Shown: positions 41,344 to 64,000 of the stretch, piece after piece | Layout of the letters: every line of letters starts with the position of its first letter | Numbering within the stretch: the first letter of the stretch is position 1 | Virus record (IMG/VR): IMGVR_UViG_2675903375_000003 | Span: 1 to 64,000 of that record | Length of the DNA stretch: 64,000 nucleotides | Strand: one strand, 5' to 3' | DNA from: a virus | Taxonomy: Duplodnaviria; Caudoviricetes | Program-made: the position numbers and the translations under genes | Notes under the pieces: generated by a model | The model's input: only the letters and a program-made list of their open reading frames with translations | Told to the model about the DNA's origin: nothing | The model's database searches: none

Positions 41344-41553
41344 TCAGGTCTTGGCCGCTGCTCGGCAGGAGGGGCACCATGCGGCGTCGGAAGGCGGTAC
41401 GTCCCGCACGGCTCCGGGCAGTGTGATGCCCTCGTCGTCGCTGCACGCGATGGCCTGGAACTCTTCCACCGGGCGGCCGACGGGCCGGTGGAAGAGGACA
41501 CGGTCTGTCGTGCTGGCGCTGTTCGATGGGATGCGTTCCTGCACGGCACGCAT
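41344..41553 (-). CDS. Small hypothetical protein (H..C..CxxC)
   Basis: AGGAG RBS; follows the WYL gene. Confidence 0.5.
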   Translation of the reverse strand: MRAVQERIPSNSASTTDRVLFHRPVGRPVEEFQAIACSDDEGITLPGAVRDVPPSDAAWCPSCRAAAKT

Positions 41554-41562
41554 GGGCTTCTC

Positions 41563-41997
41563 CTAAGCGGCGAGGTCGGTCTGGGACTGGATGAGCTTCA
41601 CTCGGGGACGGTAGTCGGCGTCGTCGGGGTCGCGCTCCAGCTCGAAGTGGACGATGGCGGTCTCGTTGTCGGCCGGGGCGTCGGCTTCGCGCTCGTACGT
41701 GGTCGGCTCGGGCCGGGTGAGGACGAACGCGATCCGGTGTGCGGTGTAGGCGGAGATGCGGGAGACGGTGAAGGCGCGCTCGGCGTCGTCGGGGTTCTCG
41801 GCGGCGGCGAGGCGGCACATGGCGTGGACGCGGATGTCGCCGGCCTTGGTGGTGCTGAAGGCGAACGGCTCGATCGTGCGGATCGTGGTGGTGCCGTCCC
41901 GGTCGGTGTAGGTGATCGTCATCGCGTGCTGACGGTCGATGGCCCGGTACAGGTCGGCGATCGTCTTGGTCTGGGTCTGGTTCTTCGTCAGCTTCAC
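41563..41997 (-). CDS. Stand-alone WYL-domain protein
   Basis: AI....ITY...G....RTIEP.......AMC.......RAFTVSRI pattern; GTG at 41997 after GAGGGG; no HTH. Confidence 0.75.
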   Translation of the reverse strand: MKLTKNQTQTKTIADLYRAIDRQHAMTITYTDRDGTTTIRTIEPFAFSTTKAGDIRVHAMCRLAAAENPDDAERAFTVSRISAYTAHRIAFVLTRPEPTTYEREADAPADNETAIVHFELERDPDDADYRPRVKLIQSQTDLAA

Positions 41998-42041
41998 GGT
42001 GTCCCCCTCGGTGCGGTGTGATCTCAGAATACACATGCGCC

Positions 42042-42055
42042 ATTGCGTCCGCAAT
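42042..42055. promoter_or_regulatory. Palindromic operator overlapping the -35 boxes of two divergent promoters
   Basis: ATTGCGTCCGCAAT; plus strand TTGCGT-N18-TATGGT; minus strand TTGCGG-N17-TATTCT. Confidence 0.75.
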
Positions 42056-42119
42056 ACTCGTGCATGTATGGTGATGTTGTCGGGGTGCGGGAACGCGCCA
42101 CGATGCGAGGCCATACCGC

Positions 42120-42133
42120 ATGGCGTCCGCAAT
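42120..42133. promoter_or_regulatory. Second operator copy (one mismatch) in the leader of the tetra-RHH gene
   Basis: ATGGCGTCCGCAAT. Confidence 0.6.
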
Positions 42134-42153
42134 GACAGGAAGGAGATACTGGC

Positions 42154-43080
42154 GTGGCCAACGCCCCCACTACGCGCCCGCCCAACAGGTCCGATCGGCG
42201 GGCGCCGAGAGGACACCGCCACATGCCGAGCAGCAGGCCGCCCAGGCCCGTGCGTTCCGAACTGACTGCCGCGTCCGCGAAGCTCCGCGCACTGCCGGTG
42301 CCCGCGCTCGCCGAGGGCCTGGATGCCGTGAAGCTGGCCGACGCCCTGGACGCCGTGCTGGCGCCGGGCGGCTGGCACGTGCTGGAGCAGACCGATCCAG
42401 CGCTGCAGGAGCCCGAGGAGCCGAAGCGCAACATGGCCTTCCCCGTGCTCAAGAGCATCCGGGACCAGATCATGGAGGCCGTGGAGGCCGATCCGGAGAT
42501 GAAGACGGTGACGGCGGCGGTGGAGCACGGGTTCCGTGAGTTCCTGGCCAGCCGGTTCCGTCCGCTTGCGCCGGAGCCGGGTCTGCCGGCGGTGGTGGAG
42601 CAGCGGGTGAACATGAACGTGCGCCCGCGGAACTCGCTGCGTGAGCAGGTTGCGGCGTCAGGGACGGCTGCGGGCAGGGTGGCGGCCGAATACCTGATGT
42701 TCCGGTACCAGTTGGGCCGGTACGCGTCGGGTGCGGAGGCTCGTCTGCCGCGGGGTGCTCAGCGTCTGCCGGAGGTTCCTCGCCGGGTGCGGGACGAGAT
42801 CCGTGTCCAGGCGAAGGCCACGGGGTGGCGGGTGGACGACGTGGTGAACGAGGGCCTGGGGAAGTTCCTGGACGGCTCGTTCGAGGCGGTGGCTCCGGTG
42901 TGGTCGGAGGAGGACCGGCGCGACATGGTGCCGCTGTCGATGCATCCGAACACGGATCTGTATGAGCGGGTCCAGGGCCGGCGTGCGGAGACCGGGCTTC
43001 GGGCGTCGCAGGTGGCGATCGACTATCTGCTGGACCAGTTCGGTATCGAGGCCGGTGTGCACGCTGACGACGGCGTGTAG
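42154..43080 (+). CDS. Putative DNA-binding regulator with four tandem ribbon-helix-helix-like units
   Basis: Four beta-helix-helix-like segments in A-B-A-B arrangement; alternative start at 42223. Confidence 0.6.
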   Translation: MANAPTTRPPNRSDRRAPRGHRHMPSSRPPRPVRSELTAASAKLRALPVPALAEGLDAVKLADALDAVLAPGGWHVLEQTDPALQEPEEPKRNMAFPVLKSIRDQIMEAVEADPEMKTVTAAVEHGFREFLASRFRPLAPEPGLPAVVEQRVNMNVRPRNSLREQVAASGTAAGRVAAEYLMFRYQLGRYASGAEARLPRGAQRLPEVPRRVRDEIRVQAKATGWRVDDVVNEGLGKFLDGSFEAVAPVWSEEDRRDMVPLSMHPNTDLYERVQGRRAETGLRASQVAIDYLLDQFGIEAGVHADDGV

Positions 43081-43172
43081 GCGGTAGGGGGCGCGGTCTG
43101 GCCTGGACGCCGACAACCCGGCCGGGCCGCGCCTGAGTACAGCATCAACATCACATCTCTCTTGGAGACCTC

Positions 43173-44207
43173 ATGGCGCAAGCCGTTGAGGCCCCCGCCA
43201 CCACTTCGGCGGAGGGCCCCACCCAGCACACCCAAAACCAGGCCGATGGGGGGCTGGACTTCGTGGACGCGACCCGCCCCGCGACGAATGCTTTCATCGC
43301 TCTGACAGGCCCGGCCAACGCCGGAAAGACCTACACCGCCCTGGCCATGGCCACCGGTATGGGAACGACCATCGGCGTTTGCGACACCGAGCGGGGCCGT
43401 GCCAGCCACTACGCTGGCCTGTTCCCTTTCAAGCATCTTCGGATGCCGGACTTCCGCCCGCAGACCCTTGTTCGGGCTCTGGCAGTGGGGGCGCGGCGCG
43501 GCGTCGACGTCATGGTCATCGACTCGGGGACGCACTACTGGTCCGGTCGAGGCGGAGTCCTGGAGCAGGTCGATCGGACGACGAACGACTCCCGGTCGAA
43601 GAACGCGTTCACGTCCGGCTGGAAGTCCATCAAGCCCGTCGAGCACGAGATGTGGGACGCGGTCATGGCCTACCCCGGGCACGTCATCATGACGCTCAGG
43701 GTGAAGACCGCGTACGAGCTGGTGACGAACAAGAACGGCCAGACGGAGCCGAAGAAGATCGGTCTGAAGCCGGATCAGCGGGCCGATGCGGAGTACGAGT
43801 TCGACTTCGTCGGTGACCTGGACATGGAGCACACGATGACCGTGTCGAAGTGCTCGTATCCGGGGCTGTTCGAGTCGGGTGAGCGTATCGAGCTGCCGAA
43901 CACCGAGACCGGAAACAAGATCGTCACGTGGCTGAGTCAGGGTACACCGATGCCCACCGTGCAGGACTACGTGAACCGGGCCATGAATCCGGAGGTCACG
44001 TATGAGCAGCTGCTCGCCCTGTACCGGGGGGAGCTGTCCCAGCGGGGCCTGCTTGGCGCGGCTCTGTTCGCCCCGGACACCGGAGAGCAGACGACGCTGG
44101 GCGGTCTGATCGCCCGTATCGGCGGTGAGCGTAAGGCTGCCGCCGAGGGCGCGCCAGCTACGTCGCAGACCGCTCAGGGCGGCGCCCCGGAAAGGAGCGC
44201 CGCCTGA
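43173..44207 (+). CDS. AAA_24 / Sak4-like recombination ATPase
   Basis: GPANAGKT, DTERG, VIDSGTHYW and EYEFD motifs. Confidence 0.8.
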   Translation: MAQAVEAPATTSAEGPTQHTQNQADGGLDFVDATRPATNAFIALTGPANAGKTYTALAMATGMGTTIGVCDTERGRASHYAGLFPFKHLRMPDFRPQTLVRALAVGARRGVDVMVIDSGTHYWSGRGGVLEQVDRTTNDSRSKNAFTSGWKSIKPVEHEMWDAVMAYPGHVIMTLRVKTAYELVTNKNGQTEPKKIGLKPDQRADAEYEFDFVGDLDMEHTMTVSKCSYPGLFESGERIELPNTETGNKIVTWLSQGTPMPTVQDYVNRAMNPEVTYEQLLALYRGELSQRGLLGAALFAPDTGEQTTLGGLIARIGGERKAAAEGAPATSQTAQGGAPERSAA

Positions 44208-49876: not shown

Positions 49877-51364
49877 GTGCAGCACGCACACCCTTCTTGT
49901 CAGCTTGGCGCTTCCCCAACGCCCGATTCGCGAGGAATCTCCCCCCGCGCGGCTGACACCCAGTGCCCCCACACCCCACACGGCACCCCCAACCACTCCC
50001 AGCCGCTCGAACACTCGTACGATTACAGTGGCGGTCCCGGTCGTGGCGGACAACTCCTGGTGAACGCAGCTAGCCAGTGGCTGCACGCCACGACCGGCCG
50101 CATCGCCACCTGCGCCCACTCCTGGATGCAAGCCGTCCACTGGATGTCCGGCAGCGGCCTCTACACGCCCTCCCGCGCACACGGCCCGAAGTGGGGCACC
50201 ACCACCCTCGCCGTCGCCCGCGAGATCAGCGCGCTCACCGAGTGCCGGCCCGGCGTCGACTACCTCGCCCGGAAGCTCCACATCTCCGAGCGCACCGTCC
50301 AGTACCACCTGGGCATGCTGCGGGAGGCCGGGCTGCTCGTGTACCGCAGCAAGGGCACCCGCATCCACGGCGTCGGCGGTCGCGCCTCCGTCTTCGAGCG
50401 GATCATCCCCACCGTCTTCGATGAGGCTCTCGGGATCCGTACGGTCGGTGAGGGTGCAACGCGCCGCCCCGTCGGCGCCGCCCCGGAGCACCGCAAGGCC
50501 CTCGGCCAGCTCGCGAAGAAGGCCGCCCGGAAGATCCGCCGCACCCGCCGCCGCCCCACCCGGACCCCTGTTTCGGACCGGAGGCTTTGCACCCCAATGC
50601 AGGGTGGTACTTCCGGCACTTCTTCTGCGGCTGGTACTCACTCTCCCTCTGAGAGCAAGCTCGCAAGCGGGGAAGCCGAGTCGCCCACCAGGAAGTCACC
50701 GAAGCGCGGGCCCCGAACCCTGAACAAGACCGGCCGCCGCTACCAGCTCGCCCGGGAACTCATCCAGCTGGTGCCGTGGCTCGGCCGCGCTTCCGCCCCC
50801 CGCATCGCCTGGATCGTCCGGCACGTCGCTGACGCCGGATGGACAGCCCTGGAGGTCCAGGCTGTTGCCGAGTGGGAGCCCGTCCACGCCGACGACGCCC
50901 GCCGCCCCTCCGGGCTGCTCGCCTACCGGCTCGGCAACCGGCACCAGCTGTTCGACACCCCCGCCAAGCGCCGGACCGCCGTCCAGGTCTGGCAGGACTC
51001 CCGCGCCGCCGAGCAGGCCCGCCACAGCGGCTACGACCAGCCCGCCCGTTCCGGCGGCCCCCAGAGCGTTGCCGCGCGCCGTGCCGTCGACGAAGCCTTC
51101 AACGCCATCCGTGACCGCCTCACCGTCGACGCCGCCGACATCATCCCCGTCGAGGAGACCACCGTGCAGCTCGAGGACCTGGCCCGAGACGAGGTCATCC
51201 AGATGCGGGCCGATGCCGCACGCGACCACGGCCTGATCTTCGCCGCGATCGACCTCCTCGGCGAGCGCGATGCCCGTCGGCTCTACACCAACCGGCTCGT
51301 CGACCAGGCCCTCGCCCTCCAGGCCATCGCCGACCGCAACGCCACCTACACCCCCGCTTTCTGA
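49877..51364 (+). CDS. Putative replication initiator (winged-HTH Rep-like); start uncertain (49877 or 50060)
   Basis: PGVDYLARKLHISERTVQYHLGMLREAGLL HTH; RRPSGLLAYRL C-terminal motif; next to DciA and par genes. Confidence 0.65.
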   Translation: MQHAHPSCQLGASPTPDSRGISPRAADTQCPHTPHGTPNHSQPLEHSYDYSGGPGRGGQLLVNAASQWLHATTGRIATCAHSWMQAVHWMSGSGLYTPSRAHGPKWGTTTLAVAREISALTECRPGVDYLARKLHISERTVQYHLGMLREAGLLVYRSKGTRIHGVGGRASVFERIIPTVFDEALGIRTVGEGATRRPVGAAPEHRKALGQLAKKAARKIRRTRRRPTRTPVSDRRLCTPMQGGTSGTSSAAGTHSPSESKLASGEAESPTRKSPKRGPRTLNKTGRRYQLARELIQLVPWLGRASAPRIAWIVRHVADAGWTALEVQAVAEWEPVHADDARRPSGLLAYRLGNRHQLFDTPAKRRTAVQVWQDSRAAEQARHSGYDQPARSGGPQSVAARRAVDEAFNAIRDRLTVDAADIIPVEETTVQLEDLARDEVIQMRADAARDHGLIFAAIDLLGERDARRLYTNRLVDQALALQAIADRNATYTPAF

Positions 51365-51367
51365 GGA

Positions 51368-51592
51368 TTGGACAGCACCGTGCCTGACGCACCTACGAGC
51401 GCCGATTTCTTGACCGTCCCGCTGGCCGACGGGGGGAGCTGGACCCGGCTGGACCGACTCACGGACGGCCGTGTCATGTGCTGCCTCTGCTTCGAATACT
51501 GCACCCGAGACCAGTTGAATCCGGTGCAGGGCGGAGTCGAGGACGTCTGCAAGGGCTGCGCACGCGCCGAAGCAGAAGGAACTGGCCGATGA
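51368..51592 (+). CDS. Small Zn-binding protein
   Basis: CCLC...CKGC. Confidence 0.5.
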   Translation: MDSTVPDAPTSADFLTVPLADGGSWTRLDRLTDGRVMCCLCFEYCTRDQLNPVQGGVEDVCKGCARAEAEGTGR

Positions 51593-52371
51593 CCCAGCAG
51601 GCATCTGGTGCCGACCTGGCCCGGCAGGCCCTCGCCGCCTACAAGGCCAGCGCCCGCACTGCTCCCACCACCAAGCCCACCCGGCCCAAGCGGAAGCGCG
51701 CCGAGCGCGGAGCCGGCCGCGACCCGCAAGGACTCGGTGCCGTCCTCGGACGCCTCACCGCCGAACAAGGCTGGACCGGCGGCATGAACGGCGGCAGCAT
51801 CCTCGACCAATGGGCCCAGCTGTGCCCCCAATACGTCGGCCTGGTCCAGCCCGCCCACTACGACGACACCACCGGCCGCCTCGACCTCCGCCCCGGCTCC
51901 CACACCTACGCCGCCCAACTCCGTCTCCTCGGCGGGCAGCTCGCCAAGCAGATCAACGACAAGATCGGGCGGCCCGTCGTCCGCACCATCCGCGTCCTGC
52001 CCGTCGGCACCCTGGACAGCACACCCCGCACAGAAACCCCCACCACGCCCGGCCCCGAGGCGCCGGTGAAGACCCGGGAGACCGCCCACCCCGGCTACCG
52101 GGCCACCCTCGACGCCGCCCTCGCCCACAAACCCGACCGGGCCCCCACCGACCCGTACCTGCTCCAAGCCATCCAGCAGCAGGACCAGGCCCTGCGCGCC
52201 AAGCGCCTGCCCGAGGACGAGCACACCGAGTACCTCGCCGAACGCGAACGCCTCGAGCGGCTCGCCGGCCCTGCCCCAGGCAGCGTCGAGGCATCCCGTG
52301 CCGCCGCCCTCGCTTACAAGCGCCGCGAAGCCGCCGGACAGACCCCGCGCCGAGCCTTCGACGCCGCATGA
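51589..52371 (+). CDS. DciA (DUF721) family helicase-loading factor
   Basis: RDPQGLG..L..L....GW....W....P......L.......A.QLRL....L...IN..IG...VR.IRV pattern of actinobacterial DciA. Confidence 0.75.
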   Translation: MTQQASGADLARQALAAYKASARTAPTTKPTRPKRKRAERGAGRDPQGLGAVLGRLTAEQGWTGGMNGGSILDQWAQLCPQYVGLVQPAHYDDTTGRLDLRPGSHTYAAQLRLLGGQLAKQINDKIGRPVVRTIRVLPVGTLDSTPRTETPTTPGPEAPVKTRETAHPGYRATLDAALAHKPDRAPTDPYLLQAIQQQDQALRAKRLPEDEHTEYLAERERLERLAGPAPGSVEASRAAALAYKRREAAGQTPRRAFDAA

Positions 52372-52817
52372 CCACTGCGGCGCCGCACCTGGCCCTCATC
52401 CTCGTCACCGGATCACGCACCTGGCCGGACCCGCGGCTCCTTGAGGACACGCTCCTCGACGTCTGGCACGACGCCCTCCAGGACGGCTGGGACGGCATCG
52501 AGGTGATGCACGGCCACGCCGACCACGGCGCCGACGCCATCGCCGACGCCTGGGCCATCCGGCACGCCGTGCCCTACCGGCGGCGCCCCGCCGACTGGCC
52601 CGGCCCCTGCGCCGCCACCTGCCCGCCGGGACACCGCCGCATCAACTCCCGCGGTCGCCCCTACTGCCCGCTCGCCGGCCACCGCCGCAACCAGGCCATG
52701 GTCGACGAACAGCCCCTCCTCGTCGTCGCCGCCTCCCATAACCGGTCCACCGGCACCGCCGACTGCATGCGCCGAGCCAAGGCCGCCGACATCCCCGTCC
52801 ACCTGATCACTGTCTGA
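52368..52817 (+). CDS. SLOG-family (DUF2493/YspA-like) protein
   Basis: LVTGSR, HG...GAD, ADW, AG.RRN..MV and GTADC motifs. Confidence 0.8.
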   Translation: MTTAAPHLALILVTGSRTWPDPRLLEDTLLDVWHDALQDGWDGIEVMHGHADHGADAIADAWAIRHAVPYRRRPADWPGPCAATCPPGHRRINSRGRPYCPLAGHRRNQAMVDEQPLLVVAASHNRSTGTADCMRRAKAADIPVHLITV

Positions 52818-57563: not shown

Positions 57564-57803
57564 ATGGCCGCCACCAGCCCGGCCCCCGCCCACTCCGACC
57601 TGGTCACCGTCGAGGAAGCCGTCGAGCTGTTCCGGGAGACCCCCCACCCGGTGTCCGTGACCACACTGAAGCGGTGGATCCGCAAGCACCGTCTCAGCGT
57701 CACCCCCGAGCCCTGGCCGGGCCGCGCCAACCGGGTCTCCTACAGCGACCTCCTCGAAGTCCACCGCGACGAGATCGGCCGCCGCGAGCAGGCCGCCGGC
57801 TGA
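57564..57803 (+). CDS. Small excisionase/MerR-like HTH protein
   Basis: LVTVEEA......VSVTTLKRWIRK. Confidence 0.7.
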   Translation: MAATSPAPAHSDLVTVEEAVELFRETPHPVSVTTLKRWIRKHRLSVTPEPWPGRANRVSYSDLLEVHRDEIGRREQAAG

Positions 57804-57914: not shown

Positions 57915-57945
57915 ATTGCGCCCGCAATGCGTCACGGGTTATTGT
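57915..57945 (+). promoter_or_regulatory. Operator ATTGCGCCCGCAAT and promoter TTGCGC-N18-TATTGT heading the early operon
   Basis: Exact palindrome arms; directly after a terminator. Confidence 0.75.
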
Positions 57946-58025
57946 GGTCGTGCCGACAGCGCAACAAGCCTCCTCACCAGGCATGTTCGCACCCGTCACA
58001 CCACCCAGGAGCACCCGTGGCCGTG

Positions 58026-58349
58026 ATGACCCATGCCCCGAACCGCACCGAAGCCGACTACACCGCCCTCACCCACGCGGACCAGGCCAAGTTCGACCAC
58101 CTCATGGACCTCGCCGACGACACCGCCGACCACGGCGAATTCACGGCCCTCATGCTCGCCGCCGCCTACGTCACCGGACTCGACATCCCCTACGGCGCCG
58201 AGATCCGCAAGTGCGGCTGCTCCTGCTACTGCGGCACCGTCTTCAACCCCGCCGACCCCGACGCCCACGTCATCGAGGAGACCGGCGGCTACAACCTCGG
58301 CCGCGTCCAGTGCCCCACCTGCGCCGACACCCACCGCGAAACCGCCTGA
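58026..58349 (+). CDS. Cys-rich hypothetical protein
   Basis: CGCSCYCG...CPTC. Confidence 0.55.
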   Translation: MTHAPNRTEADYTALTHADQAKFDHLMDLADDTADHGEFTALMLAAAYVTGLDIPYGAEIRKCGCSCYCGTVFNPADPDAHVIEETGGYNLGRVQCPTCADTHRETA

Positions 58350-58906
58350 TGGCAACCCAGAACGGAACCACACCGATGGCCACCGACCCCACCAAGCACC
58401 TCCTCGGCTACGGCCGACGAGACGCCGCAACAGGCATGCTGCACGGCCACATCCGCTGGCCCCACGGAACCACGCCCAACCCCTACGGCTGCCGCTGGTG
58501 CGGCGACGACCAGAACAGCCACGGTCGCCAGTGGACGGCCGGACACGGAATGCACAGCTGGCAGAAGCCCACCGAGGCGCAGATCAAGGCCCGCATGCTG
58601 GCGCGCCGGAACGCCAGGAAGGCGGTGTGCCGGTGCCCGCAGGACGACGACATGCCGCGTCCGTTCGCGCCGGTGGTGGACCCGTACTCGTGCGAGGCCG
58701 CCGACTGTCACGGCTCCTTCTCGGAGCTGAGCCCGTTCGGGGGAGGCCCGGTCCACGGGCACGACGCCAAGGTGTCCCGCACCTGCGGCCAGTGCGGCTA
58801 CCGGACGTCGGTCTGGCACGTCAACGACGGATCAGCGGAGGAAGAACTCCACCGCCACATCACCCGCGTCCACAACTCCCACCCCGTCGACCAGACCGCC
58901 GCCTGA
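58349..58906 (+). CDS. Hypothetical protein with several Cys/His clusters
   Basis: CRWCG..H..H, IKARMLARR, CGQC..H..H. Confidence 0.55.
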   Translation: MATQNGTTPMATDPTKHLLGYGRRDAATGMLHGHIRWPHGTTPNPYGCRWCGDDQNSHGRQWTAGHGMHSWQKPTEAQIKARMLARRNARKAVCRCPQDDDMPRPFAPVVDPYSCEAADCHGSFSELSPFGGGPVHGHDAKVSRTCGQCGYRTSVWHVNDGSAEEELHRHITRVHNSHPVDQTAA

Positions 58907-58981
58907 CCCACACCAGGCTCCCCGGCCGCGCACGACACCGCCTCTGCGCGGTCGGGTGAACAACCCCGCCAGGAGACCCTC

Positions 58982-59419
58982 ATGCGCAGCACCACCCACA
59001 CCCTCCGCCTCGCCGCCCACATCATCACCCACCGCGGCCTCCACACCGACGACCAGTTCGCCGACCGCCTCACCCGCCGCGTCGACATCTGCGCCGCCAT
59101 CTACCTCGCCACCCAGCCCTACCAGCGGCCGGAACGCCTCAACATCCCGGCCGAGTTCTTCACCGACGAAGGACACGCCATCACCCTCATCGAGGCCAAC
59201 CCCCAGGCCATGCAGGCGATCCGCGCCGTGTCCGCCGCCATCACCAACTACCTGGTGCCCGACACCGACGGCCAGCCCGACGTCATCGAACACGTCTCCA
59301 ACTGGGTCCGCACCCCGCCCATCGGCTGCACCCAGCCCCCCAGCCTCTCCGAAGTCATCGGCTGCATCCTCCGCGCCGCCCGCAACGCCACCAGCACCCC
59401 CCACCCGAACGCCGCCTGA
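58982..59419 (+). CDS. Hypothetical protein, DUF6197-like
   Basis: L..AA.II..RGLH...DICAAI...W...EVI..LRAA. Confidence 0.55.
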   Translation: MRSTTHTLRLAAHIITHRGLHTDDQFADRLTRRVDICAAIYLATQPYQRPERLNIPAEFFTDEGHAITLIEANPQAMQAIRAVSAAITNYLVPDTDGQPDVIEHVSNWVRTPPIGCTQPPSLSEVIGCILRAARNATSTPHPNAA

Positions 59420-59434
59420 AAGGCCCCCACCACC

Positions 59435-59680
59435 ATGACGATCCAGACCCTCGCCCCCGCCAACGACAGCCGCGGCGACAACAACTCCTACGACGCCGGC
59501 TACTTCGACGGCGAACTCGACGCCATCAGCAAGCTCCCCGCCGCGCTCGCCAACAACCGCGCCTCCATGGCCGACCCCTACGACCCCATCTGGGCGCAGG
59601 GCTACGCCGACGGCTACCTCAACCAGATCCAGGTCACCTACGCCCTCGCCGAGCCCGGCGGCCAAGCCCTCGGCGACTGA
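59435..59680 (+). CDS. Hypothetical protein
   Basis: YDAGYFDG and GYADGY motifs. Confidence 0.55.
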   Translation: MTIQTLAPANDSRGDNNSYDAGYFDGELDAISKLPAALANNRASMADPYDPIWAQGYADGYLNQIQVTYALAEPGGQALGD

Positions 59681-59763
59681 CGCCAGACACCCCCCACCCC
59701 GTCATCACCAGCACCGGAGCAGCACCGCACCACACCACCCGAACCGCAGGACGGAGACCGGCC

Positions 59764-60381
59764 ATGGCCCGGACCACCACCAGCAGCGCCCGCAAGACGC
59801 CCGCGAAGAAGACACCCGCCGCCCGCAAGGCCACGGCCAAGAAGCCGCCCGCCGCCAAGCCGACCACGAAGGCCCAGGGCACGGCCGTCGACACCCGGCC
59901 CCTGCTCCCGGTACGGCGACGCGTCTTCGTCGGCCCCATGGGCGCCCACGAGCAAGCCGCCATACGCGCCGCCCTCGCCTCCGCCGCCGCCCGCCTCCCC
60001 ATCCCCGTCCGCGCCTGGAACGGCCCCACCGCCCACCTCACCGACGGCACCGTCCTCACCCACACCCCCCACCACGCCACCACCGACCAGACCCCCCAGT
60101 TCATCGCCCACATCCCCTGCCGCCACGGCGCCACCCACCAGCACCTCATCCACACCGCCCGCGACCTCGCCGCAGCCCGCACCGCCACCAACCGCTGCGA
60201 CGGACTCCACGGCACCACACAGCCGAAGCCGCCCGCGATCCTCCAGCTCCGCGAGGGCATCCAGCGGGCCACCGCCTCCGCCGCCGACACCCAGCCCCTG
60301 TCCCGCGACGACATCGACGCCGGCCTCAACGCCCGCACCGCGGGCGACCCGGAACGCCCGAAGGAGCACCCCCAGCCGTGA
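59764..60381 (+). CDS. Hypothetical protein with histone-like AKK-rich N-terminus
   Basis: ARKTPAKKTPAARKATAKKPPAAK. Confidence 0.55.
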   Translation: MARTTTSSARKTPAKKTPAARKATAKKPPAAKPTTKAQGTAVDTRPLLPVRRRVFVGPMGAHEQAAIRAALASAAARLPIPVRAWNGPTAHLTDGTVLTHTPHHATTDQTPQFIAHIPCRHGATHQHLIHTARDLAAARTATNRCDGLHGTTQPKPPAILQLREGIQRATASAADTQPLSRDDIDAGLNARTAGDPERPKEHPQP

Positions 60382-60782
60382 CCGACAACCCGATCCCCAA
60401 CTGGTACCGCGCCGTCACCGAACGGGCCGCCAAGGAAGCCCCCACCGTGCCGGAAGCCACCGCACTGGCCACCGACTACTCCGTCAGCTGCGTCCCCGAG
60501 AACTGCGTCGACGCGTTCATCTTCAGCATCCGGGTGCAGTACCGGGGCTCGGGCCGCTACGCCGTCATCCGCGGCGGCGACATGTGCCTCGGGTCCGACG
60601 GCACCTGGGACCACGGAGTCAAGGAGTACGACCGCGGCCAGGCGTGGCTCGACCACCACCGCTTCGACCTCGACACCGCGCTCCGCCTCGCCAAGGAACA
60701 GGCGGCGCTGGTGACCGTCAACGGCCACACCGTGAGCGACGTGCTCGCCATCCAGAAGAACCGGGAGGAGAACCGTGGCTGA
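60378..60782 (+). CDS. Hypothetical protein
   Basis: Coupled ORF with AAGGAG RBS. Confidence 0.6.
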   Translation: MTDNPIPNWYRAVTERAAKEAPTVPEATALATDYSVSCVPENCVDAFIFSIRVQYRGSGRYAVIRGGDMCLGSDGTWDHGVKEYDRGQAWLDHHRFDLDTALRLAKEQAALVTVNGHTVSDVLAIQKNREENRG

Positions 60783-61179
60783 GCACACCCCCGGCTATGT
60801 GGCCGCCCTCGCCGCCGCCCTCCACCAGGCCAACGTCGACGCCCTCCTCGCCGCACAGAACGGCGACAACCAGCTCGGCACCGCCCTCCGCCACCACCCC
60901 GGCTTCCGCACCTGGAACGGCGACCTCCTCCAAATCGGCCACATCCCCCTCACCCCCTTCGCCATCGAATGCAACGTCCTCCTCCCCGACCACCAGTACG
61001 TCGACCAGGCCCACCACGAACACGTCCGCCTCACCCCCCTCGAACCACCCCCCGGCTACACCCGCGGCAACCGGGACTGGCGCGGCTGGATCTTCTGCCG
61101 AGCCGACGCCGACGGAGCCGTCCCCATCACCATCGCCGTCACCCAAACCCGACCCGACGACGAACAGGACACCCCGTGA
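60775..61179 (+). CDS. Hypothetical protein
   Basis: Overlapping ORF with GGAGG RBS. Confidence 0.55.
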   Translation: MAEHTPGYVAALAAALHQANVDALLAAQNGDNQLGTALRHHPGFRTWNGDLLQIGHIPLTPFAIECNVLLPDHQYVDQAHHEHVRLTPLEPPPGYTRGNRDWRGWIFCRADADGAVPITIAVTQTRPDDEQDTP

Positions 61180-61724
61180 CCACCACCGCCCCCGAGCCGA
61201 GCACCCAGCGGGAACTCCGACTCACCATCGTCGTCCACGGAAGGCCCGCACCCCAGGGCAGCAAGAAGTACGCCGGCCACCGCCGCAACAGCGCCTCCGG
61301 CCGCATCAGCGCCGTCCTCGTCGAACAGGTCAAAGGCGTCAGGCCATGGCGCCAGCAAGTACACGCCGCAGCCCTATCCGCCATCCGCCAGTTCGACAAC
61401 TGGCGCCCCCTGGACGGCCCCCTCGCCGCCGACATGGTGTTCACGGTCCGCGCCAAACCCGCCAGCCGACCCGTCTGGTGGCCCCGCGGCACCCGCTGGT
61501 TCAAGCACCTCCACTGGCGCCCCGCATCCGCCCCCGACCTCTCCAAGCTCCTGCGATCCACCGAAGACGCCCTCACCACAGCCCAGGCATGGAAAGACGA
61601 CGCACGAGTCGTCGAGTACGGCCACCTCGCCAAGTACTACGCCGGCGACCCCAGCCACCCCGACGTCCTACCCGAACCCGGCGCCATCATCCGCCTCTAC
61701 ACCCTTCCCGGAGCAGCAGCATGA
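61176..61724 (+). CDS. rusA: RusA-family Holliday junction resolvase
   Basis: GRPAPQGSK and PDLSKLLRSTEDAL....WKDDARVV motifs. Confidence 0.85.
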   Translation: MTTTAPEPSTQRELRLTIVVHGRPAPQGSKKYAGHRRNSASGRISAVLVEQVKGVRPWRQQVHAAALSAIRQFDNWRPLDGPLAADMVFTVRAKPASRPVWWPRGTRWFKHLHWRPASAPDLSKLLRSTEDALTTAQAWKDDARVVEYGHLAKYYAGDPSHPDVLPEPGAIIRLYTLPGAAA

Positions 61725-62218
61725 CCACCACGACCAGCCGCGATAGGAAGCCCGCCGCGCCCCGCCGCCCCGAAGGCGCCCTGGCCGTCCGGGAACCGGC
61801 TGCCACCACCGCCTGGAAGTCCCGAGGCGCCTGCCGCACCCACCACGATCCCGACCTGTGGTACCCCGAAGGGCAGTCCAGCCCCTTCCGCTGGCAGATC
61901 GCGGAAGCCAAGGAGATCTGCAACACCGAGTGCCCCGTCCGGCAGACGTGCCTGGAATGGGCGCTGGAGCACCGGCAGGACACCGGCATCTGGGGCGGCA
62001 TGTCGGAGCTGGAGCGGAGTGCTTTGCACGGGCGCCGTCGGCCGGGTGGGCATGCCAGTGCCGTGGACGGCATCCTCACCCGGCGCCTTCCGGAGTTTCT
62101 CCAGCTGCAGGAGCAGGGCTTGTCGCCGTGGGGTATCGCTCAGGCGCTGGGGACGAGCGTGGCCACCGTGAACAGGGTCATCGCCCGACTCGCCCAGGAG
62201 CAGGAGACGGCGGCATGA
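61721..62218 (+). CDS. WhiB-family regulator with C-terminal HTH
   Basis: WKSRGAC..DPDLWYP..C...CPVRQTC..GIWGG; IAQALGTS.ATV. Confidence 0.88.
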   Translation: MTTTTSRDRKPAAPRRPEGALAVREPAATTAWKSRGACRTHHDPDLWYPEGQSSPFRWQIAEAKEICNTECPVRQTCLEWALEHRQDTGIWGGMSELERSALHGRRRPGGHASAVDGILTRRLPEFLQLQEQGLSPWGIAQALGTSVATVNRVIARLAQEQETAA

Positions 62219-63141
62219 GCCGAAGGACGCCCTCCCAGCAGGCCGCCGCCACGCACATGCAGGCCCGTCGGCGACGGCTCAAGGCCCTGGGGCAGTGGCA
62301 GCCGTACGTGGACGCCGGCCCGGCCCGCGAGCACCTGAAGAAGATCAACGCCACGGGCATGCCGGTAGCTGCGGTCTGTGAACGGCTGGGCCTCCCGCAC
62401 GCGTCTTCTCTGCAGCCGCTGCTGTGGGGGCGCGGATCGTACGGGCCTGCGCAGAAGGTACGGCGGGAGACAGCAGAGCTGGTTCTGTCGTACTGGCCGC
62501 GGCTGGAGGACTTCCCGGACTCGGCGTTGATCGACGCGACGGGAACCCGCCGTAGGGTGCAGGCGCTGGCGGTCCGGGGCTGGTCTCGGAACTGGATAGG
62601 CCAGCAGGTCGGGATGCGGCCGGAGCACTTCCGTAAGGCCATCACCCGAGACCGCGTCACGGCGGCTCTGGCCCGCAGTGTGGCCGCTGTGTACGACGCG
62701 CGTTGGAACCAGGACCCGACCGACCACGGCATCTCCCTGAACGCCGCCTCCCGGGTACGGGCCGACGCTGCACGGTCGGGTTGCCACTCGGCTCTGGCGT
62801 GGGACGACGACACGATCGACGACCCGAGCGCGGTGCCGCTCACGGACGCCTGCGAGCCGGCCGCCACAGAGGGCGGGAACCTGGCCGCGCGGTGGCTGAT
62901 GGGCGAGTCCGTGATCCTCGACCTTCAGGCGAGGAAGGAAGTCCTGGCCCACCTGTATGAGTGGACGAACGACACTCCGCAGGAGATCGCCGACAAGCTC
63001 GGCATGACGTTCGCCGCGGCCGACCGGGCGTGGGAGCGGATGAAGGAGAAGGCCGCCCGTGATGGCCGGCGCCTGTGGCGGCGGGTGTATGTGGCGCGTG
63101 ACCGGGACCTGAAGAAGAACGAGATGGAGGAGGCGGCCTGA
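62215..63141 (+). CDS. Multi-HTH phage protein
   Basis: [25 protein letters not shown] and [10 protein letters not shown] motifs; terminal EIADKLG HTH. Confidence 0.65.
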
Positions 63142-63644
63142 TGGCTGGCGAGACGCTGTTGACGATCGTCGGGAATCTCGTTGACGATCCCGAGCTCAGG
63201 TTCACTCCGAACGGGGCTGCGGTGGCGAAGTTCCGTGTCGCGTCGACGCCGCGGTCGTACAACCGGGACACGCAGGGGTGGGAGGACGGCGAGAGCCTGT
63301 TCCTGTCCTGCTCGGTGTGGCGGCAGGCTGCGGAGAACTGTGCGGAGACGCTGTCGAAGGGGATGCGGGTCATCGTGCAGGGCCGGTTGAGGCAGCGGTC
63401 GTATGAGGACCGTGAGGGGGTGAAGCGGACGGTGTATGAGATCGATGTGGAGGAGATCGGCCCGTCGCTGCGGAACGCGACGGCGCGGGTGACGAAGGCC
63501 GGTTCGGGTGGGGGGAAGGAGGCGTATCAGCAGGCGCGGCAGGCGTCGTCGCGGGAGGGGTTGGAGGATCCGTGGGGTGCGTCGCCGGCTGGGCAGGGTG
63601 GCGTGTCGGCTGGCGGGTGGGATGGGGGTGAGCCTCCGTTCTGA
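63141..63644 (+). CDS. ssb: Single-stranded DNA-binding protein
   Basis: [17 protein letters not shown] fold; C-terminal EPPF. Confidence 0.95.
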
Positions 63645-63726: not shown

Positions 63727-63756
63727 ATTGCGCACGCAATGCGTGAAGGGTAGTCT
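63727..63756 (+). promoter_or_regulatory. Operator ATTGCGCACGCAAT and promoter TTGCGC-N17-TAGTCT
   Basis: Exact palindrome arms; canonical -35/-10 spacing. Confidence 0.75.
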
Positions 63757-63798: not shown

Positions 63799-64000
63799 GT
63801 GCTCGACAACCTCGGATTCCACACCAACCGCGACTACCAGGCCGAACTCGACTCCCTGAACCAGCAGATCAACGCCACCACGGGACGCATCCAGATCGGC
63901 CTGTTCCACAGCCCCGAGGACGAGGCGAACACCCACAGCCAGCTCACCACCCTCCAGACCCACGCCCGGATCCTGGCCCGCGAGGCCGCCATGGAGAACC
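63799..64000 (+). CDS. Hypothetical protein, truncated by the window end
   Basis: AGGGGG RBS then GTG; frame open to the end. Confidence 0.5.
   Translation, partial: MLDNLGFHTNRDYQAELDSLNQQINATTGRIQIGLFHSPEDEANTHSQLTTLQTHARILAREAAMEN

Follow-up and report, generated by a model that had tools for sequence, protein, structure and literature searches.

A conserved, uncharacterised control module of a Streptomyces phage-plasmid pairs a stand-alone WYL protein with a predicted tandem ribbon-helix-helix protein around one palindromic operator

Introduction

WYL regulators such as PafBC, DriD, CapW and BrxR combine a winged helix-turn-helix (wHTH), a WYL domain and a WCX domain, and, to our knowledge, all characterised WYL regulators carry their own DNA-binding domain. 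In CapW and DriD the WYL domain binds single-stranded DNA (ssDNA), which frees CapW from DNA, and in this way an ssDNA signal is passed on to transcription (PMC11662680). Here we describe a locus in which the WYL domain stands alone. It lies in a 64-kb window (the whole stretch of DNA analysed, bases 1–64000 of the 94,556-bp IMG/VR virus record IMGVR_UViG_2675903375_000003; complete according to CheckV; G+C 70%), and its source element is a pZL12-like Streptomyces phage-plasmid. A gene for a WYL protein of 144 amino acids (41563–41997, minus strand) diverges from a gene for a 308-amino-acid protein with a predicted tandem ribbon-helix-helix (RHH) fold (42154–43080, plus strand), and the pair is a conserved, uncharacterised control module around one palindromic operator. 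Like the wHTH-WYL-WCX regulators, the window WYL protein has an Sm-like barrel, superposable to about 2 Å over about 80 residues, with arginine positions that align with those of PafBC. In contrast, it has neither a wHTH nor a folded WCX domain, its W-Y-L triad is replaced and it ends in LAA. DNA binding would here lie on the separate, divergently transcribed protein.

An RHH module and WYL domains are reported to occur together in the Cas13d accessory protein RspWYL1 (PDB 6oaw; PMC6547453). In that protein both are fused in one chain, bind single-stranded RNA and boost a CRISPR effector, whereas here they are encoded by two genes around the promoter-operator of a phage-plasmid. On the RHH side, a monomer of TraY holds the whole RHH dimer fold in one polypeptide (PMC12117103). 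As in F-plasmid TraY, AvtR and VirC2, two RHH units of the window protein would reproduce an RHH dimer within a single chain. TraY, however, is a relaxosome accessory factor at oriT, whereas the window protein is a candidate binder at promoter −35 boxes; it adds a basic N-terminal arm, a helical domain and, in one sub-clade, a second pseudo-dimer, and its sequence similarity to TraY is undetectable.

In the immI region of phage P22 (RHH proteins Arc and Mnt, antirepressor Ant), RHH repressors act at divergent promoters and a repressor controls the gene of its own antagonist, while in the C1/Coi system of P1 one repressor serves many operators scattered over the plasmid-prophage. Neither is homologous to the locus described here, where the proposed antagonist is a ligand-sensing WYL protein and one operator covers both promoters. 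The locus also differs from lambda CI/Cro: the record encodes no self-cleaving S24 protein, its Xre-type helix-turn-helix (HTH) domains lie outside the window and are not conserved in relatives, and the two promoters diverge, but under a single palindrome that covers both −35 boxes, which does not allow mutually exclusive expression. Our literature search turned up no work on WYL proteins in the control of lysogeny, nor on this WYL/RHH pair.

Our preferred reading, to which we assign a probability of roughly 45%, is that the RHH protein is an operator-binding early repressor and the WYL protein a labile, signal-sensing modulator, together forming a central early-gene control module. Its components are of known kinds, namely a WYL sensor, an RHH repressor and a dispersed operator regulon. 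New would be the placing of sensor and DNA binder in separate, exchangeable genes, a degradation-tagged WYL protein, and a tandem or four-unit RHH protein with nested starts. We regard the mechanism as plausible rather than proven. Many actinobacterial prophages lack a cleavable CI-type repressor, and damage sensing in them is poorly understood. If a WYL sensor stood at the centre of this family of Streptomyces phage-plasmids of ~90 kb, it would open one route of damage sensing, and the module may constitute a new means by which a prophage times its switch to lysis. The family reaches to at least 137 WYL proteins and 271 RHH clusters and includes a tractable member, pZL12. Being small, and with operators known at single-base resolution, the module is directly testable; if our reading is true, it would also supply a compact operator and repressor toolkit for Streptomyces.

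Results

A stand-alone WYL protein with a degradation-type tail

A first-pass annotation of the window, made from its letters, had described a WYL protein without an HTH and a diverging protein with four RHH-like units. Pfam, structure prediction and Foldseek matches bore out the first description, and the second held as a predicted structure with TraY and Arc fold matches. The likely start of the WYL gene is GTG 41997 on the minus strand, with the Shine-Dalgarno sequence GAGGGGGA upstream, and its open reading frame (ORF) ends at 41563. Pfam PF13280 matched residues 16–88 with 29.5 bits against a cut-off of 21.8. An AlphaFold2 (AF2) model, built on 39 homologues, folds residues 13–90 into one helix and a five-strand Sm-like barrel, which Foldseek aligned with the WYL domains of PafBC, BrxR, CapW and DriD at probability 1.0 and a root-mean-square deviation of 1.8–2.5 Å over 79–85 columns. 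R40, R62 and R74 show little or no variation and line up with conserved positions of the PafBC WYL domain. No HTH was found by Pfam or in the AF2 model, in which the barrel already begins at residue 13. Likewise, the model contains no folded WCX dimerisation domain after the barrel: residues 91–144 have a predicted local distance difference test (pLDDT) score of 51–74, include one short helix and form an acidic tail that is mostly disordered by prediction.

This tail is among the best-conserved parts of the family (consensus YELxRDxDDADYRPR...LAA). The last two residues are AA in 119 of 120 homologues and the last three LAA in 114, and the window protein ends DLAA. ssrA-type ClpXP substrates are marked by a C-terminal LAA, and the Streptomyces regulators ClgR and PopR are degraded through a C-terminal Ala-Ala. 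From this end and these precedents, we infer that the WYL protein is likely to be short-lived. A 403-amino-acid apparent fusion (P0233) was discarded, its N-terminal half being a spurious antisense reading across the WYL gene.

The divergent gene encodes a predicted tandem RHH protein

The RHH ORF starts at GTG 42154, behind the Shine-Dalgarno sequence GGAAGGAG, and ends at 43080. Its AF2 model, built from 10 sequences, has a mean pLDDT of 77 overall and above 90 in four β-α-α units at residues 94–131, 151–184, 207–240 and 258–295; these are preceded by a basic, proline-rich arm (1–23) and a helical region with a conserved LAPGGW motif (31–78). The model supports a pairing of the units into two TraY-like single-chain pseudo-dimers, 94–184 and 207–295. 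In Foldseek, three TraY chains of the F relaxosome ranked first (probability 1.0, E 0.04), and no match in the PDB reached E ≤ 0.001. A VIA search, which is independent of Foldseek, aligned TraY with residues 90–186 (Z 6.8) and a permuted single-chain Arc with residues 198–301 (Z 5.3), and the fused RHH-WYL structure 6oaw matched units 1–2 at Z 5.9; DndE, AvtR, VirC2, RelB, DinJ, omega, CopA and NikR were further matches. The ESM Atlas gave only leads below 0.9, to CopG, Arc and ParG clusters, and a six-frame RHH_1 search of the whole 94.5-kb record returned no match.

The gene appears to carry a second, nested start. An in-frame GTG or ATG is present at codon 23–27 in all 56 related loci examined, and in all 56 it is preceded, 7–10 nt upstream, by A(G/A)AGGA. 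This hexamer is composed of rare codons (in the RHH genes, AGA makes up 2.2% of Arg, AAA 3.7% of Lys and GGA 12% of Gly codons), and, judged by its sequence, it is equivalent to an internal Shine-Dalgarno that has been conserved. Conservation extends to the upstream start and its encoded arm (MANAPTRPP..RRPPKGP). Because both starts are conserved, two isoforms are probably made, a long one with the basic arm and a short one without it. In the window the short form would begin at ATG 42223, and public gene calls use this form.

Directly 3' of the RHH stop codon lies a GC-rich hairpin of 15 bp without a U tract (43089–43133, plus strand); the 98-nt stretch that contains it has a folding energy of −43.9 kcal/mol (z = −2.5). 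The hairpin resembles a terminator or attenuator and may separate the RHH gene from the downstream AAA_24 and methylase genes. This suggests that the RHH gene is largely its own transcription unit.

One palindrome covers the −35 boxes of both divergent promoters

Between the two genes lies operator O1 (42042–42055), a perfect palindrome, ATTGCGTCCGCAAT, of the form ATTGC-N4-GCAAT, whose arms serve as the putative −35 boxes of both promoters. For the rightward (RHH) promoter, TTGCGT (42043–42048) is followed after an 18-nt spacer by the −10 hexamer TATGGT (42067–42072, plus strand), and for the leftward (WYL) promoter a 17-nt spacer separates the TTGCGG arm from TATTCT (42026–42031, minus strand). 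An imperfect copy of the palindrome, O2 (ATGGCGTCCGCAAT, 42120–42133), lies in the transcribed RHH leader, 78 bp from O1. This is the arrangement that had been read from the window at first pass, with both arms as −35 boxes and a second, imperfect copy in the leader, and sequence and relatives agree with it down to the coordinates.

A generic sigma-70 promoter and terminator scan of 41400–43300 returned nothing, because each candidate promoter matches just 8 of 12 consensus positions; the promoter assignments draw on conservation among relatives. In the 50 related loci with an identifiable O1, a TAnnnT hexamer stands 10–12 nt to the right of the palindrome in 49 and 10–12 nt to its left in 42. 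O1 lies 44–52 nt from the WYL start in nearly all of the 56 related loci. An O2-like copy, with at least 8 of the 10 arm positions, follows 53–79 bp downstream of O1 in 34 of the 50. The left arm of O2 is consistently ATGGC, not ATTGC, in the relatives, with a conserved CCATACC(C/G)C before it, which suggests an imperfection maintained by selection or a further determinant of binding.

The operator recurs at early promoters of the element and not on host chromosomes

With at most one mismatch, the motif occurs at 4 sites in the window against 0.37 expected, and each of 100 shuffles yielded fewer than 4. The full 94.5-kb record, although its genes are densely packed, holds 6, each of them in an intergenic region: perfect copies at 42042, 57915, 63727 and 83517, and one-mismatch copies at 42120 and 86675. 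The third operator-promoter (ATTGCGCCCGCAAT, 57915–57928, plus strand), followed after 11 nt by TATTGT, heads the operon 58017–63644, which includes genes for DUF6197, RusA, a WhiB-HTH protein and SSB. The fourth (ATTGCGCACGCAAT, 63727–63740, plus strand) is followed after 10 nt by TAGTCT, and its operon starts at 63799. Outside the window, a perfect operator (ATTGCGTACGCAAT) at record 83517–83530 (L037:1495–1515) precedes a leftward operon from 83461, and a one-mismatch copy (ATGGCGGGCGCAAT) lies at record 86675–86688.

All four perfect sites share the same −35/−10 geometry, and those other than O1 drive one promoter each. At these sites the second arm would thus owe its conservation to a dimeric binder rather than to RNA polymerase. 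Across five whole genomes of hosts with related elements (~43 Mb), we counted 11 perfect sites, every one on the element contig and none on a chromosome, which argues for an element-encoded binder. A host regulon was rejected, as no perfect site was present on any of the five host chromosomes.

The pair is conserved, and the palindrome changes with the partner

WYL homologues number at least 137 proteins of 85–181 amino acids, and those on long contigs are mostly found on Streptomyces contigs of ~85–97 kb, that is, on sister phage-plasmids. We gathered 68 loci, with a WYL alignment, from GTDB genomes and IMG/VR, a few of them being the same element in both collections. The WYL gene and its neighbour are divergent in all 68, and in 60 the neighbour belongs to the tandem-RHH family. 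Conservation of pair and motif in related elements had been suggested as a check in the first-pass annotation, and it is borne out here, with the geometry of O1 kept as well.

The closest named relative, the Streptomyces plasmid-phage pZL12 (GQ919031), has the same layout: a WYL gene (pZL12.31), a divergent RHH gene (pZL12.30c), an AAA_24 gene and two C5 methylase genes follow in the same order. Its O1 is ATTGCCAATGCAAT, and O2 lies in the leader as in the window. The product of pZL12.30c is 33% identical to the window RHH protein over 97% of its length. The annotations of the two genes go no further than 'transcriptional regulator' (pZL12.31) and 'hypothetical protein' (pZL12.30c); a literature search, which did not include the original 2010 pZL12 paper, found no functional study of pZL12.31/pZL12.30c.

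A profile search recovered 271 representative clusters of the RHH family in two size classes. Proteins of ~160–200 amino acids have two RHH units, while those of ~260–350 amino acids are matched twice by the profile, pointing to an internal duplication that yields four units. Most related loci have two-unit partners with the same palindrome as the four-unit kind. From the sequences, then, the four-unit chain is a variant of one sub-clade in which units 3–4 are accessory. Since the two-unit relatives use the same operator, units 1–2 would be the reading head, and the dyad is probably read by two chains through units 1–2 and not by a single tetra-RHH chain.

In the eight WYL relatives that diverge most, the conserved N-terminus is still present, as are the barrel and the AA end. 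Of these 8, at least 7 are paired with other small ORFs that look like DNA binders by sequence: a 70-amino-acid single RHH protein in L028 (pair at L028:3681–4408), another single RHH protein in L074, Phd/YefM-like proteins in L075, L076 and L078, and small HTH proteins in L079 and L080. In L074, L075, L079 and L080 the alternative pairs are situated around locus positions 2300–2950. Between the genes of the alternative pairs lie palindromes of quite another kind, such as GTGTACGTACAC repeated three times, or TGTACA boxes, but a WYL protein that is just 35% identical and is paired with a tandem-RHH protein keeps ATTGCGCGCGCAAT (ATTGC..GCAAT). The palindrome thus changes with the partner class, which indicates that operator specificity tracks the partner and not the WYL protein. 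By sequence, the divergent pairs look like a mix-and-match system of sensor and DNA binder.

The RHH-type partner is the favoured reader of the operator

Adjacency, fold and partner swaps lead us to infer that the RHH-type partner, and not the WYL protein, reads the operator. The RHH protein has the only predicted DNA-binding fold in the conserved pair, and it adjoins O1 and O2 as classical autoregulators do; its conserved N-terminal arm may contribute to recognition. The earlier proposal of a single-chain RHH protein as the operator-binding regulator is therefore supported as far as the RHH-type partner is concerned, which the partner swaps favour, but not for a single tetra-RHH chain, most relatives having two units. 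The operators have a spacing of 13 or 14 bp, and which of the two occurs correlates with the β-strand type of RHH unit 2, a correlation confounded by shared ancestry. As for covariation between protein and half-site, the half-site is almost invariant in the tandem-RHH class and leaves nothing to discriminate.

The first-pass annotation had also recognised no CI-, Xre- or S24-type repressor. Inside the 64-kb window this is correct, with no match to HTH_3, HTH_31 or S24, and Peptidase_S24 has no match in the whole 94.5-kb record; two Xre-type HTH matches do, however, lie elsewhere in the record, at 69783–69944 and 90086–90262, in proteins that are not conserved with the operator. Both were considered as cognate binder and rejected: the Xre protein at 69444–69974 is not conserved on related elements that keep the operator, and the Xre-HTH and helical-repeat protein of ~400 amino acids at record 89075–90280 is not conserved on five related elements.

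Discussion

In the mechanism that we favour, the pseudo-dimer formed by RHH units 1–2 would read the asymmetric half-site ATTGC, and two chains would fill ATTGC-N4-GCAAT. Because one palindrome covers both −35 boxes, binding at O1 would shut the RHH and WYL genes together. The weaker O2 in the RHH leader would tune autoregulation, and the same operator would repress at least three other early operons, whose genes serve DNA metabolism or encode WhiB-type regulators and SSB. On the WYL side, the barrel, like those of PafBC, DriD and CapW, would take up a ligand of nucleic-acid type, the conserved acidic tail would act on the DNA-binding partner, and ClpXP-type proteolysis through the C-terminal LAA would hold the protein at a low level. 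Given the LAA end and the way in which WYL regulators already characterised behave, we favour a ligand-activated or ligand-stabilised antirepressor: WYL protein that is ligand-bound or stabilised would inactivate the RHH repressor, and the WYL gene and the early operons would be derepressed. The outcome would be a repressor/antirepressor double-negative loop, possibly linked to induction. The overlap of O1 with the −35 box of the WYL promoter would fit a repressor that controls the promoter of its own antagonist.

A switch unlike that of lambda had been proposed from the first look at the window. The circuit indeed has no lambda-type toggle, one palindrome covering both −35 boxes, but the proposal needs recasting: read from its sequence layout, the circuit is one of co-repression with possible protein-level antagonism and not an either/or promoter toggle.

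A broader version of this model is more tentative. It holds that the loci represent a two-polypeptide WYL switch, in which a free, protease-labile sensor works with interchangeable DNA-binding partners (tandem RHH, single RHH, Phd/YefM-like or HTH) and couples a nucleic-acid or DNA-damage signal to derepression of the early regulon. If such a modular switch existed, it would give actinobacterial phage-plasmids an induction route independent of RecA/LexA, with the nested long and short RHH isoforms as a second layer of control.

Several points weigh against the repressor/modulator model. The residues of the RHH β-strands differ between relatives (NLNVRP versus TLTVTV), but the half-site ATTGC is almost constant; such variation is unexpected for direct read-out and leaves room for another conserved reader, although this constancy may owe something to the half-site also being a −35 box. 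In the window family, I-R/V-V stands in place of the W-Y-L triad from which the domain takes its name. The WYL tail, whose motif ELxRD...Y...AA is broadly kept across partner classes, may for that reason contact a common host factor and not the partner. The fold assignment of the RHH protein met blanks in Pfam, PHROGs and NCBIfam (PADLOC gave no match either), and its VIA Z values are all below 8, which is modest, yet the list of matches is coherent. The operator is assigned to the RHH protein from adjacency, predicted fold and partner swaps. Finally, the repressor gene stands behind its own operator, so that the early promoters would never be shut more tightly than its own, an arrangement that suits a Cro-like autoregulator no less than a maintenance repressor. 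That the RHH gene may largely be a transcription unit of its own would ease the objection that a repressor cannot head the operon that it represses.

In a somewhat unlikely alternative, the RHH protein is an autoregulated early regulator and the WYL protein does not act on it. The WYL protein would then be co-regulated but serve a separate early or maintenance role: it might protect replication intermediates by binding ssDNA or RNA, blunt host WYL-controlled defences, or act on a host factor. Short stand-alone WYL proteins, uncharacterised, do occur in many unrelated phages (BFVD matches), the PADLOC models that match the window WYL protein are CRISPR- and DRT-associated WYL models, and a tail motif conserved whatever the partner class points to a common, possibly host, target. 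However, a tandem-RHH partner is present in 60 of 68 loci, and at least 7 of the 8 others have a different small ORF with palindromes of its own; such persistent pairing across partner classes is hard to explain unless the two genes are functionally coupled.

In another view, unlikely in our estimate, the pair is an obligate two-protein repressor, in effect a split wHTH-WYL regulator. The RHH protein would bind tightly only with the WYL protein as co-repressor, and a ligand on the WYL protein, or its degradation by ClpXP, would dissolve the complex and derepress the early operons. CapW and BrxR are precedents, as WYL repressors that ssDNA frees from DNA (PMC11662680). In addition, the WYL gene comes first in the leftward operon, a position like that of CI, linkage between the two genes is tight, and a labile co-repressor with an LAA tail would allow fast induction. 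On the other hand, this view presupposes a hypothetical contact between the two proteins, and WYL proteins that are ~80% identical pair with quite different RHH partners, of two or four units and with 13- or 14-bp operators. Furthermore, if the complex shuts its own promoter while one component is being degraded, a stable state becomes less obvious.

The variable β-strands over an invariant half-site could also mean that another protein of the element reads the operators and that the RHH protein binds elsewhere, at O2, in the flanks or at some other site. The example that we considered is a 79-amino-acid HTH_17 protein (57564–57803). Its gene ends ~110 nt before operator 57915 in the window and lies ~85 nt from an operator in two related elements. 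Of 5 related genomes, 3 have a homologue on the contig that also holds the operators, and a fourth has one on another, small contig. The fifth genome, in which none was found, nevertheless keeps four operators. The operators in the WYL/RHH intergenic region, O2 included, fit autoregulation by the adjacent DNA-binding gene, and the operator changes when the partner class of the WYL protein changes. HTH_17 proteins, moreover, are typically excisionase-like. Taken with these points, such a reader seems quite improbable.

A toxin-antitoxin-like addiction pair seems very improbable: the partner folds (RHH, Phd/YefM-like, HTH) span the DNA-binding domains of type II antitoxins and one component has a degradation tag, but the genes are divergent in all 68 loci and not co-transcribed, the tagged labile component is the WYL protein, which has no toxin-like fold, and the operator also controls at least three unrelated operons.

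The wider gene content of the element comprises virion genes, TraB-type transfer, ParA, Rep/DciA and a recombinase. The leftward operon headed by the WYL gene also carries a tyrosine recombinase gene and a PIN-domain gene. At 50060–52817 of the window come, in this order, genes for a Rep-like wHTH protein (HTH_20, E 1e-5), an element-encoded DciA and a SLOG-family (YAcAr) protein; this set is probably the plasmid replication module, situated downstream in the RHH-led rightward gene array.

The ~400-amino-acid Xre protein outside the window (L040:445–1770; record 89075–90400) combines an Xre HTH at its N-terminus (HTH_31, E 2e-14) with a C-terminal part that is long and helical, a layout that resembles peptide-sensing regulators composed of an HTH and a repeat domain. 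Upstream of its gene lies an inverted repeat, TTGGCAAT-N14-ATTGCCAA.

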